NCBI RefSeq assembly: GCF_021246445.1
Contig: NZ_JAJQXW010000001.1
Span: 682,001-746,000, forward strand
DNA: 64,000 nt
Direction of reading: 5' to 3'
Source of the DNA: Rhabdothermincola salaria
Lineage (GTDB): Bacteria > Actinomycetota > Acidimicrobiia > Acidimicrobiales > Acidimicrobilacustridaceae
A program made the position numbers and the translations under genes. Positions 36,509 to 38,459 of the stretch are shown piece by piece. Below the pieces are notes generated by a model. The model ran no database searches. It was not told the DNA's origin and was given only the letters and a program-made list of their open reading frames with translations. Numbering within the stretch: the stretch's first letter is position 1; every line of letters begins with the position of its first letter.

Positions 36509-36610
36509 CTCGGCCCCGGCCCTCCGCCGGGGCCGAGCCGCGTCCGGCCTTCCCTCCCGCTTCTTGCATGGGTTCGACGTCCTGGGGGACGTCGAACCCA
36601 TGCAAGAAGC
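36509..36610. repeat. Composite palindromic element copy 1 (hairpin A + hairpin B)
   Basis: A: ctcggccccggc-N5-gccggggccgag (36509-36537). B: perfect 24-bp arms gcttcttgcatgggttcgacgtcc-tggg-reverse complement (36559-36610). Confidence 0.9.
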
Positions 36611-36653
36611 CAGGGGTTAGGGGAGGCTGGACACCACCGGCCCGACCCTTTCG

Positions 36654-36859: not shown

Positions 36860-37363
36860 ATGAACACGACGAAGAAGGTCCGCCGAGGGGCGATGGCGGT
36901 CGTTGCCGCCGTCACGATGGCGGCGGGCGCGCTGGCCCTGACCCTGCCGGCCTCGGCTGGCGAGCCCTGGCCCGGCGAGGTCGTCGTCGAGGCCGGCTGC
37001 GTCGAGGGACAGGGCGTGGTCTACGTCGACATCTTCGACGACTTCAGCGCGGAGTACGACGTGGCCCTCCTCCTCGGCTCCGACATCATCGACCTCGTGG
37101 AGGCGACGACCGACACCGACGAGGGTGAGAACACGATCGAGTTCGGTCCGCTCGAGGACGGCACCTACACGGTCATCGTCGACTGGATCCAGGAGCAGAG
37201 CGACATCGGTTTCTTGCAGATCTTCGACGGTGACGTCACCGTCGACTGCGTGCCCGACGACACGACGACCACCAGCACCACCGCGGTGTCGCCGTCGTCC
37301 ACCAGCACCGCTGCCCCGGCCGCGGCGGCCGCCGCCGCGGCCACCCCGCGCTTCACCGGCTGA
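36860..37363 (+). CDS. Secreted acidic protein, paralog A, with Thr/Ser/Ala linker and C-terminal TPRFTG
   Basis: 167 aa; signal peptide ending ASA; two Cys; clear similarity to 37817-38287. Confidence 0.88.
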   Translation: MNTTKKVRRGAMAVVAAVTMAAGALALTLPASAGEPWPGEVVVEAGCVEGQGVVYVDIFDDFSAEYDVALLLGSDIIDLVEATTDTDEGENTIEFGPLEDGTYTVIVDWIQEQSDIGFLQIFDGDVTVDCVPDDTTTTSTTAVSPSSTSTAAPAAAAAAAATPRFTG

Positions 37364-37383
37364 TCTTCACCACATCTGCCACG

Positions 37384-37485
37384 CTCGGCCCCGGCGTCCT
37401 GCCGGGGCCGAGTCGCGTCCGGCGCACCCACTCCGCTTCTTGCATGGTTTCGACGTCGCCCAGGACGTCAAAACCATGCAAGAAG
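37384..37485. repeat. Composite palindromic element copy 2 (hairpin A + hairpin B)
   Basis: Hairpin A arms identical to copy 1 (37384-37412). B: cttcttgcatggtttcgacgtc-N6-gacgtcaaaaccatgcaagaag (37436-37485). Confidence 0.9.
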
Positions 37486-37535
37486 GCCGGGAGGGGAGGG
37501 AGGTCGGTCTTCGCTGGACGACCACCGGGGCGTCG

Positions 37536-37661
37536 TCAGGTGCCGGCCGCCCAGTGGCGGAGGACGTCGTGGGCCCCCAGGACCCGGTTGTAGACGGCCA
37601 CCTCGTCGATCGTGCCGGTGAAGGTGGTCGAGGCCGAGTCGCGCTCGAGGGGCCGGCGCCA
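37536..37661 (-). pseudogene. C-terminal remnant of a LamG/concanavalin A-like domain gene
   Basis: FTGTIDEVAVYNRVLGAHDVLRHWAAGT*; no start codon upstream of the motif and an in-frame stop at 37716-37718. Confidence 0.65.
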
Positions 37662-37727
37662 GATTGCAGCCGGCGGCGCACTCCGGTGGCCGCCGTCCTG
37701 GTGGTGCTCGCCCCATCATGAGCCGGC

Positions 37728-37816
37728 TGCTAATCTCCGGCCGACCTGTCGGGTCACCGCGAGCCGCCTCCGTCGGTCGGTTCGAGGGTCCAGGAACGTG
37801 CGAAAGGCAAGGGTCG
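37728..37816 (+). promoter_or_regulatory. Extended -10 promoter and structured 5' leader of paralog B
   Basis: TGcTAATCT; gacc/ggtc and gagccgcc/ggtcggttc hairpins; ccagga..gcgaaaggcaag. Confidence 0.55.
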
Positions 37817-38287
37817 ATGACGACGATGAAGGTTCGCCGCGGAGCGATGGCAGTGCTGGCCGTAGGTACGCTCGGGCTGGGCGCGATCGGGATGATGTCA
37901 CCGGTCTCCGCAGGCGAGACCTGGCCGGGTGAGGTCACCGTCAGTGCGGCGTGCGTCGACGGCGACGGTGTCGTGCTGGTCGACATCTTCGACGACTTCG
38001 GCGCCGGCTACAACGTGTTCCTCTTCCTCGGCGAGCAACTCGATCCCGTCGAGAGCGCCCTCGGGGTCGACGAGGGCGTCACCGATTTCGGCCCGCTGGT
38101 GGACGGCACCTACACCGTGGTCGTCGACTGGATCAACGAGGAGATCCAGGTCTTCGAGGGCGACGTGACCGTCGACTGCGTCCCCGACGACACGACCACC
38201 ACCACGGCCGCTCCGTCCTCCTCCACCACCACTGCGGCACCCGCGGCGGCCGCCGCCGCGGCTGCCACCCCCCGTTTCACCGGCTGA
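37817..38287 (+). CDS. Secreted acidic protein, paralog B, with Thr/Ser/Ala linker and C-terminal TPRFTG
   Basis: 156 aa; signal peptide ending VSA; shares WPGEV, VDIFDDF, FGPL.DGTYTV and GDVTVDCVPDD with paralog A. Confidence 0.88.
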   Translation: MTTMKVRRGAMAVLAVGTLGLGAIGMMSPVSAGETWPGEVTVSAACVDGDGVVLVDIFDDFGAGYNVFLFLGEQLDPVESALGVDEGVTDFGPLVDGTYTVVVDWINEEIQVFEGDVTVDCVPDDTTTTTAAPSSSTTTAAPAAAAAAAATPRFTG

Positions 38288-38397
38288 TCGCGTCGGGCGG
38301 CGGTTCGGATGCCTCTCCGGGCATCCTCGCCTCGGAGCCACCGCCGTCTGACCCGTCGCCGTGGTGCGCGGCGAGAGCGCCGAGACGCTCCGTCTTC

Positions 38398-38447
38398 GTT
38401 CTTGCATGGTTTCGTCGCACTCCACCGCGCCGAAACCATGCAAGAAC
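38398..38447. repeat. Palindromic element copy 3 (hairpin B only)
   Basis: gttcttgcatggtttcg-N16-cgaaaccatgcaagaac, perfect 17-bp arms. Confidence 0.9.
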
Positions 38448-38459
38448 CGCGTGTGTCGG

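Follow-up and report, generated by a model that had tools for sequence, protein, structure and literature searches.

The P-x-[FY]-T-G sequence at the very end of two small secreted proteins of Rhabdothermincola salaria is very probably a genuine, modular and lineage-restricted C-terminal sorting signal of Sec-exported proteins. The two proteins, paralogs A and B, are encoded in a stretch of 64,000 nucleotides (nt), which we call the window and which corresponds to C1:682001-746000 of genome G000 (3.9 Mb, 7 contigs, 71% GC; genomes, contigs, loci and families are cited by handles beginning with G, C, L and f). Our results established that the tail is real, modular and lineage-specific, and that it co-occurs and is syntenic with a subfamily of L,D-transpeptidases of the YkuD family. 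Whether this subfamily, lipoproteins with a bacterial SH3 (SH3b) and a YkuD domain, is the reader of the tail seems to us an evenly balanced question, and we infer binding, cleavage between Thr and Gly and wall attachment of the carriers. The whole reading, in which the tail is a sorting signal that a lipoprotein L,D-transpeptidase reads as a mimic of the stem end and in which its Thr is linked to the wall, is plausible at a level that we place slightly below even. C-terminal sorting signals decide which exported bacterial proteins remain on the cell; to our knowledge, every one described depends on a segment that spans the membrane for retention and on a membrane enzyme dedicated to it.

The gene of paralog A (open reading frame (ORF) A, 36860-37363 of the window, + strand) encodes 167 amino acids followed by TGA: a signal peptide, a small beta-sandwich, a Thr/Ser stalk, an Ala run and a PRFTG end. 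The gene of paralog B (ORF B, 37817-38287, + strand), spaced 453 nt from ORF A, encodes 156 amino acids, counted from the first ATG, followed by TGA; it has the same architecture and 60-68% identity to paralog A. Both N-termini are basic and hydrophobic, end in ..SA|GE and are followed by an acidic body; in paralog A the signal peptide covers residues 1-33 (36860..36958, + strand), with a putative cleavage site, judged by eye, at ...LPASA|GEP. The identical C-terminus of the two proteins, AAPAAAAAAAATPRFTG and then TGA, lies at 37310..37360 in paralog A (residues 151-167) and at 38234..38284 in paralog B, both on the + strand, with the P-R-F-T-G core at 37346-37360 (invariant; stop at 37361-37363) and at 38270-38284 (stop at 38285-38287), respectively. 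The Pro-Arg codons of the tail differ synonymously (ccg cgc vs ccc cgt), and the tail region shows 79% DNA identity with a peptide that is 100% the same; the sequence past the stop is not conserved between the paralogs. The original prediction, which had been made from the window itself, had drawn attention to this identical tail with its synonymous codons on two secreted paralogs and to its Arg as the sole Lys, Arg or His of either mature protein, and both observations were confirmed (R131 of 134 in A; R121 of 124 in B). Its description of a two-Cys, acidic, beta-rich domain also agreed with our results: each mature protein has 2 Cys and 27 (A) or 22 (B) Asp and Glu residues, and in the AlphaFold2 model of paralog A (10-sequence alignment) residues 40-128 (36977..37243, + strand) form a predicted seven-strand Ig/FN3-like beta-sandwich with C47 inside and C130 just past it. 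The predicted local distance difference test (pLDDT) score of this block is mostly ~90, and the Thr/Ser stalk and the tail are disordered in the model.

A Foldseek search with the paralog body returned generic, weak FN3/C2-like matches and none at E<=0.001, and Pfam and NCBIfam assigned no family to paralogs A and B, the lone match being a sub-threshold DUF2538 for B. The paralog family consists of 10 proteins among 5.8 billion searched, 8 of them from other sources, while tblastn of paralog A against the genome contigs found no relatives. All 10 share the C-terminus A[TAS]P[RT][FY]TG, directly before the stop, and in none does a hydrophobic segment follow the tail, so that the case that the original prediction had named as a refutation, a truncated sortase signal with homologs continuing into a transmembrane (TM) helix, was not encountered. 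On the basis of the model, the window proteins would most likely be ordinary small cargo of the proposed system, a beta-sandwich on a flexible stalk.

The scan of G000 covered every stop-to-stop ORF of 80 amino acids or more in six frames (25,240 ORFs), and the expected tail counts were derived from the internal frequency of each motif. P.FTG-stop ended 23 ORFs, whereas 0.09 were expected, which excludes chance; FTG-stop ended 25 ORFs against 1.5 expected, and PRFTG (14 times) was the top C-terminal pentapeptide once Arg-rich out-of-frame noise was set aside. The tail is therefore found well beyond the paralog pair, with 23 carriers in G000 and 9-39 pattern matches per genome in related families. 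A crude hydrophobicity score rated the N-termini of all 23 carriers as signal-peptide-like. Their last five positions are P (23), R, A or T (14, 5 and 4), F (23), T (23) and G (23), the x position being occupied by A, S, N, T, E, G, K, D or H in relatives; the residues before the core are [TRV], V/A and V/A, frequently after a Thr/Ser/Pro/Ala stalk. In most cases a short Ala/Val-rich stretch, together with a Thr/Ser/Pro stalk, leads up to the tail. The stop behind the Gly is real, because lower-GC members of f1, the family of the window, use all three stop codons (TGA, TAA and TAG) at this position. Read-through or recoding was rejected, with all three stop codons in use and the downstream frame not conserved. 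Among the carriers 15/23 are Lys-free after residue 30, compared with 11% of 2,265 genes called by GC content at third codon positions (GC3) and 25% of 64 crudely defined secreted non-carriers. The G000 carriers are markedly acidic as well as poor in Lys.

The bodies in front of the tail are unrelated to each other, as the original prediction would have it for a tag that sits on different N-terminal domains. Pfam was run on 20 carriers, with the window paralogs scanned separately and C5:147261-147809 left out: 12 of the 20 matched eight unrelated family types over the cut-off, 7 matched nothing and 1 had a sub-threshold match only. These types are an M28 peptidase, a trypsin, an alpha/beta hydrolase with a TAP-like domain, an NHL/SBBP propeller, Big_9/cadherin-like (2), fn3, DUF4397 (2) and the ALK_LTK glycine-rich domain (3). 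No curated Pfam or NCBIfam model, including those of sorting domains, covered the tail in the C-termini of 22 carriers, and full-text literature searches, with subscription journals outside their coverage, found no published description of it. The closest homologs of the carriers come from sources named Acidimicrobiales, Acidimicrobiia and Acidimicrobiaceae, all metagenome-assembled genomes (MAGs). The glycine-rich carrier has 120 listed homologs, 24 of which have a P.[FY]TG end and 1 an RFTG end without Pro; by regular expression, 4 have an LAxTG/LPxTG-like motif with a TM helix and a basic end, 6 have another TM and basic end, and 85 have other ends. The M28 carrier as query retrieved 80 loci in other Actinomycetota, with the tail at 0/79 readable C-termini. 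These M28 aminopeptidase homologs (L025-L104) have a different conserved end, approximately [FY]-x-[YF]-[KS]-G-x-x-[AL]-[IV]-R-stop, which may be a family-specific C-terminal motif or a pro-peptide signal.

Relatives were searched with the DNA back-translation of P-x-F-T-G followed by TRR, and the reversed pattern was used as the control. Because TRR also admits TGG, 0-7 matches per genome were taken as background. Among 31 relatives, 17 of the 19 f1 genomes, G000 included, had 9-36 matches against 0-2 in the control, the exceptions being G012 (7) and G014 (3); in sister families, G027 had 25 and G021 and G026 had 10 each. In a class sample of 301 genomes that are >=85% complete, at least 9 matches (control 0-2) were found only in f1 (10/10), f35, which belongs to another order (12/18), G026, G283 and a single unpublished genome, while f7 (35 genomes), f14, f30 (40), f33 (26), f38 and f39 had 0-5 and isolated genomes had 6-7. 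The class, enzyme and phylum tallies include unpublished genomes, and no claim depends on those. The 277 genomes of the phylum sample from outside the class had 0-9 matches each. The matches of the top phylum outlier (G382, 9 matches) and of four borderline class genomes (6-7) are noise, since about half are TGG and the remainder are short spurious ORFs or cytosolic enzymes such as those with crotonase-like ends. Enrichment of the tail is confined to a few families of one class, probably Acidimicrobiia, a name taken solely from the sources of the nearest homologs; other families of the class and the 277 genomes from outside it are at background level. Three identical pattern matches in G099 lie less than 200 nt from contig starts (C9:155-172, C16:32-49 and C41:60-77) and are probably copies of a repeat located at contig ends, not tail genes.

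The original prediction had suggested profiling the tail against sortase-like and L,D-transpeptidase genes. Sortase proved uninformative, both at the level of the Pfam family and as orthologs, since its presence does not follow the tail: 30/31 relatives have a Pfam sortase, whatever their tail count. G000 has one sortase (C3:326519-327511) and 11 classical sortase substrates with LP[YF]TG or LAYTG, a TM helix and an Arg cluster, whose motifs have [FY]-T-G in common with the tail. Tail-rich as well as tail-poor genomes contain full-length orthologs of the G000 sortase, with 42-72% identity, and no match to it was found in the tail-rich MAGs G199 (94% complete) and G224 (92% complete). No homologous bodies were found between the tail cargo and the LPXTG cargo of G000 at E<=1e-5, and no tail gene was seen adjoining a sortase gene. 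A second, divergent sortase-like family, whose match to the Pfam sortase model is limited to the first ~85 positions, was observed in several tail-rich and tail-poor relatives (G010:C1:34811-35098, G001:C26:80028-80783, G048:C1:1218409-1218711 and others) and was not found in G000. Among the L,D-transpeptidases, one subfamily co-occurs with the tail and is its repeated neighbour. The YkuD and sortase genes of G000 lie outside the window, in line with the earlier statement that the window contains no candidate enzyme.

At the level of the Pfam family, YkuD is uninformative on the tail because it is present in 53/55 chosen genomes. Searches with the tail-adjacent YkuD enzyme of G009, however, found the subfamily in 27/27 tail-rich vs 8/28 tail-poor chosen genomes, and in 114/301 class genomes, including all 24 published tail-rich ones; at E<=1e-8 it was not found in f7 (0/35), f33 (0/26) and f37 (0/11). 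The adjacent enzymes are lipoproteins with an L-x-A-C lipobox, a bacterial SH3 domain (SH3_3) and a YkuD domain with HG...SHGC[VI]R; H229, G244, C245 and R247 are invariant in 13 enzyme sequences, and candidate enzymes matched PF03734 with 78.4 and 65.3 bits (cut-off 23.4). A YkuD tree of 93 sequences was built by quick maximum likelihood, with Shimodaira-Hasegawa-like approximate likelihood ratio test (SH-aLRT) values as its only support. In this tree, the subfamily is set apart from the YkuDs of genomes without it (support 95), save one misplaced long-branch row. The tail-adjacent enzymes fall in several well-supported subfamily clades, and the starred branches force at least 5 changes of the label 'adjacent'. 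The lipoprotein enzyme of G000 (G000:C1:1684357-1685163; L137:3364-4170) groups with the tail-adjacent enzyme of G288 (SH-aLRT 98), and the enzymes of the tail-free f30 form their own clade (99) with an SLGC motif. A predicted-complex run with the G009 enzyme (residues 75-269, 13-row alignment) and the last 40 residues of its neighbour tail protein (9-row) gave no answer, with scores of 0.04 and 0.06 against a mark of 0.32 and without controls. Catalytic-motif variants were also observed: SNGCPH in one f35 clade (L183, L186, L222), and SLGCVR in the tail-free f30 clade (L208-L213) in place of the SHGC[VI]R of most tail-adjacent enzymes.

Adjacency was defined as a P.FTG-stop gene within ~1.5 kb of a subfamily gene, and the lists of tail matches were complete for 25 genomes. 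An adjacent pair was found in at least 11 of the 25 (G001, G027, G044, G247, G092, G216, G232, G160, G275, G183 and G210), while no pair was present among the enzyme matches listed for G038, G142, G322, G246, G088, G313, G052, G108, G068, G301, G111, G248, G223 and G250. In the first 20 genomes at least 9 pairs were seen against 0.66 expected, and in 16 tail-poor genomes (<=7 matches) at least 7 against 0.13, both expectations ignoring shared ancestry. Partial lists gave at least 5 further pairs (G009, G010, G014, G026 and G288), and the pairs found span nine families (f1, f9, f10, f21, f23, f27, f29, f38 and f47). The tail gene usually lies immediately upstream of the enzyme gene on the same strand, with a gap of 10-300 nt; the pair is divergent in G275 and G210 and convergent in G183, and the tail gene is downstream in G092. 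In genomes with 1-4 pattern matches, the genuine tail is the enzyme-adjacent one (G288, G044, G014, G160, G216, G232, G247, G183 and G210); G288 has a single tail match, 1.5 kb downstream of the enzyme. The commonest partner is an exported protein that is small, acidic and rich in Pro; it contains one to three Cys-x6-9-Cys motifs and ends in P[TND]FTG. Unrelated partners are an Ice_binding-like protein (G092), a 199-aa protein (G275), a 359-aa protein (G026) and a Thr-rich ORF of at least 127 aa (G288). G000 has a member of the Cys-x6-9-Cys family (C5:248368-248718), which adjoins a sigma-70-region-2 gene as in G010, with no enzyme gene between the two.

A Pfam search of 129 ORFs around the carriers of G000 revealed no recurrent enzyme family. 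The only wall-polymer-attachment gene among these neighbours is a LytR_cpsA_psr (LCP) gene (L116:3394-4887; G000:C3:288394-289887), which directly adjoins a DUF4397 carrier. ORFs were also called around the tail clusters of G010, G032 and G048, where the GC3-based caller is weak at 57-60% GC.

How such an enzyme might use the tail can be proposed by analogy with its ordinary reaction. In the account of a 2025 review (PMC12729407), the donor of an L,D-transpeptidase is the stem tetrapeptide, which loses its terminal D-Ala when the catalytic Cys attacks diaminopimelate at the carbonyl of the L-centre. The free L-Thr-Gly-COOH end of a carrier would mimic the L-diaminopimelate-D-Ala-COOH end of this normal donor. 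The catalytic Cys of the enzyme would attack the Thr carbonyl and expel Gly, and a stem peptide of the wall would then resolve the Thr thioester with its side-chain amine. The product would be a protein joined to peptidoglycan through a C-terminal Thr, the same as the product of sortase. The carrier would have to be the donor in this reaction, because the tail offers no amine and its sole reactive feature is the terminal Thr-Gly. The enzyme itself would be tethered at the membrane surface, so that no retention segment would be needed on the cargo. Such a donor mimic would explain why Gly is the last residue, why the membrane-retention segment is dispensable and why a long flexible stalk precedes the tail, and perhaps why the carriers are poor in Lys. 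We tentatively suggest, as a possibility somewhat weaker than an even one, that in some Acidimicrobiia-like actinobacteria a lipoprotein L,D-transpeptidase is a second, sortase-independent anchoring enzyme with P-x-F/Y-T-G-COOH as the acyl donor. With the same reserve, the core pair of a small acidic Cys-x6-Cys protein and the enzyme might be ancestral, and the tail might later have reached dozens of enzymes and adhesin-like proteins in two lineages.

Several points weigh against a transpeptidase reading of the tail. We know of no precedent for a protein as the donor of an L,D-transpeptidase, and the likeness of Thr-Gly to diaminopimelate-D-Ala is an analogy. In the protein tethering documented by the 2025 review (PMC12729407), the protein is always the acceptor and the stem peptide the donor. 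The subfamily was defined by E<=1e-8 to one query, the tail-adjacent YkuD of G009, and not as a clade. It occurs in 90/277 class genomes without tail enrichment, for example in 33/40 of f30 and 6/6 of f32, and because of this it is not sufficient for the tail and is at best necessary; it surely also performs ordinary 3-3 cross-linking. In G000 no carrier adjoins a YkuD gene, and neither the tail-rich G038 and G142 nor the tail-rich f35 genomes examined show adjacency. There are few independent lineages behind the co-occurrence, and related genomes inflate every count. Finally, the signal peptides were scored by a crude script rather than a trained predictor.

Other explanations of the tail differ in how well they fit these results. 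A non-covalent docking or retention motif, in which the short, beta-prone Ala/Val stretch and PxFTG-COOH bind the SH3b domain of the neighbouring enzyme, a surface-layer protein or a polymer of the wall and nothing is cleaved, would suit a short tail behind a flexible stalk; bacterial SH3 domains, such as the one in the adjacent enzymes, are known to bind walls and peptides. We nevertheless consider docking unlikely: the last three residues are strictly invariant and Gly is terminal in 23/23 carriers and 10/10 members of the paralog family, which fits a catalytic site better, as does the Thr-Gly end, the bond that sortases cut, which is better suited to such a site than to a surface patch. The non-covalent wall-binding modules known to us are, moreover, folded domains and not pentapeptides. 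Rather unlikely, too, is another processing route, through a C-terminal protease, a PDZ protein or a glycosylation or lipidation enzyme, with the transpeptidase neighbourhood reflecting shared envelope regulation only. Many tail-rich genomes, G000 included, lack adjacency, the enzyme subfamily is far wider than the tail, and the commonest neighbour belongs to one small acidic family, so that the pairing could descend from a single ancestral operon; but at least four other, unrelated cargo types adjoin enzymes of different clades, the genuine tail is the enzyme-adjacent one where there are 1-4 matches, and no other enzyme family recurs among the 129 neighbours in G000.

The housekeeping sortase might also process the tail as a truncated LPXTG-type signal, cutting between Thr and Gly with the usual anchoring. 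Thr-Gly is the scissile bond of sortases, and the G000 sortase with its 11 LP[YF]TG/LAYTG substrates has [FY]-T-G in common with the tail. However, compared with LPXTG the Pro of the tail is shifted one position away from Gly, and there is neither a Leu nor a TM helix nor a basic end; the orthologs occur regardless of tail count, with no match in the tail-rich but incomplete G199 and G224, tail and LPXTG cargo have no homologous bodies, and no tail gene was seen beside a sortase gene. We therefore regard processing by sortase as improbable. That there is no signal, the shared end being due to a repeated DNA element, stop-codon read-through or chance, is hardly credible. Both paralogs and one other carrier do have a palindromic repeat shortly after them, but it begins 70-110 nt past the stop and is absent near 20/23 carriers, and neither the synonymous variation of the tail codons nor the enrichment over expectation agrees with such an origin. 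The proposal of the original prediction, an undescribed sorting or anchoring tag with a reader other than sortase, is supported by the modularity and spread of the tail, by homologs that do not run on into a TM helix, by a sortase presence that does not follow the tail and by the transpeptidase subfamily that does co-occur with it, and we infer covalent attachment.

The LPXTG signals of sortases (classes A-F) are the closest parallel. Like them, the tail is C-terminal behind a Thr/Ser/Pro stalk on Sec-exported proteins, contains Thr-Gly and is modular across unrelated cargo; LAxTG and TM anchors take its place in homologous glycine-rich proteins, and its predicted product is a Thr carboxyl on a wall amine. 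In LPxTG and LAxTG signals, a TM helix and a basic tail follow the Thr-Gly cleavage site, whereas the Gly of the tail is followed by the stop in all 23 carriers and all 10 family members, with no TM helix and no C-terminal basic cluster. The motif [TRV]-P-x-F-T-G also differs, with Pro at -4 from Gly rather than -3 and no Leu/Ala-Pro pair, and G000 keeps its 11 classical substrates as a separate set. The tripartite systems (PEP-CTERM/exosortase, PGF-CTERM/archaeosortase, GlyGly-CTERM/rhombosortase and MYXO-CTERM/myxosortase) resemble the tail in that a short motif sits on many unrelated exported proteins of a restricted lineage, but in all of them a TM helix and an Arg-rich end follow the motif, and the reader is a polytopic membrane enzyme; no model of these systems matches the tail. 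Several carrier bodies gave sub-threshold NCBIfam matches to PEP-CTERM ScyF, to rhombotarget A and to a MYXO-CTERM family. The C-terminal domain of the type IX secretion system is a folded beta-sandwich of ~70-100 aa, whereas the last ~40 residues of the carriers are a low-complexity stalk and a tail of 5-12 residues, disordered in the model.

A free pentapeptide that works as a sorting signal would be the smallest such signal known and, if the transpeptidase reading of the tail holds, the first without a membrane-retention segment. That reading would also provide the first protein that serves as a donor, not an acceptor, for L,D-transpeptidases, which would widen the known chemistry of a widespread and drug-relevant family, and it might give a compact sortase-like ligation tag. 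Acidimicrobiia are abundant in waters, soils and wastewater, and their cell envelope is almost unstudied; the tail is an immediate annotation rule for their surface proteome. With regard to the enzyme, the parallels are Lpp with LdtA/B/C and the outer-membrane beta-barrels of Alphaproteobacteria, for which the review cited above (PMC12729407) describes a covalent protein-peptidoglycan link made by the YkuD family, that of our candidate; specialised paralogs would serve protein attachment in both. The known cases described there (PMC12729407) are, however, Gram-negative, and the protein accepts through a Lys side chain or its N-terminus, whereas the tail is without Lys, its x position tolerates A, T, S and N, and the host is an actinobacterium. 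The tetrapeptide stem (L-Ala-D-isoGlu-meso-diaminopimelate-D-Ala-COOH) would resemble the tail in having an L residue and then one small terminal residue with a free carboxylate, the loss of which pays for the new bond in the stem (PMC12729407). It differs in that the tail is ribosomal, with Phe-Thr-Gly in place of D-isoGlu-meso-diaminopimelate-D-Ala and an achiral terminal Gly.

Carriers are often arranged in tandem arrays of paralogs. Three ~350-aa genes lie together in G010 (L127, G010:C1:3435844-3439108), and G000 has two at C5:146381-147809 besides the window pair; at G067:C11:41051-42478 there are three pattern matches ~700 nt apart, read as match coordinates only. The genes that flank the window pair are metabolic: an amidohydrolase_2 gene lies upstream, and on the opposite strand downstream are genes for a short-chain dehydrogenase and an F420H2-dependent reductase.

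A hairpin element recurs around the pair, at 36557-36615, 37433-37491 and 38395-38453 of the window; its outer stem (TTCTTGCATGG ... CCATGCAAGAA) is conserved, and its inner stem varies by compensating substitutions. Nine full copies are present in G000, three of which flank the paralogs and one of which lies 74 nt past another tail carrier; the copies outside the window are at C1:239583, 407980, 487392, 1734956 and 1933679 and at C3:434145. A search of the flanking hairpins against Rfam gave nothing at the gathering score, with sub-threshold matches to miRNA hairpins only. A second GC-rich hairpin, CTCGGCCCCGGC..GCCGGGGCCGAG, is found at 36509-36548 and 37384-37423, just upstream of the first two palindromic copies, and because it precedes both, the unit after the upstream gene and after paralog A is a conserved double hairpin. 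The palindromic element might form an RNA structure of the terminator type or be a site to which a protein binds.

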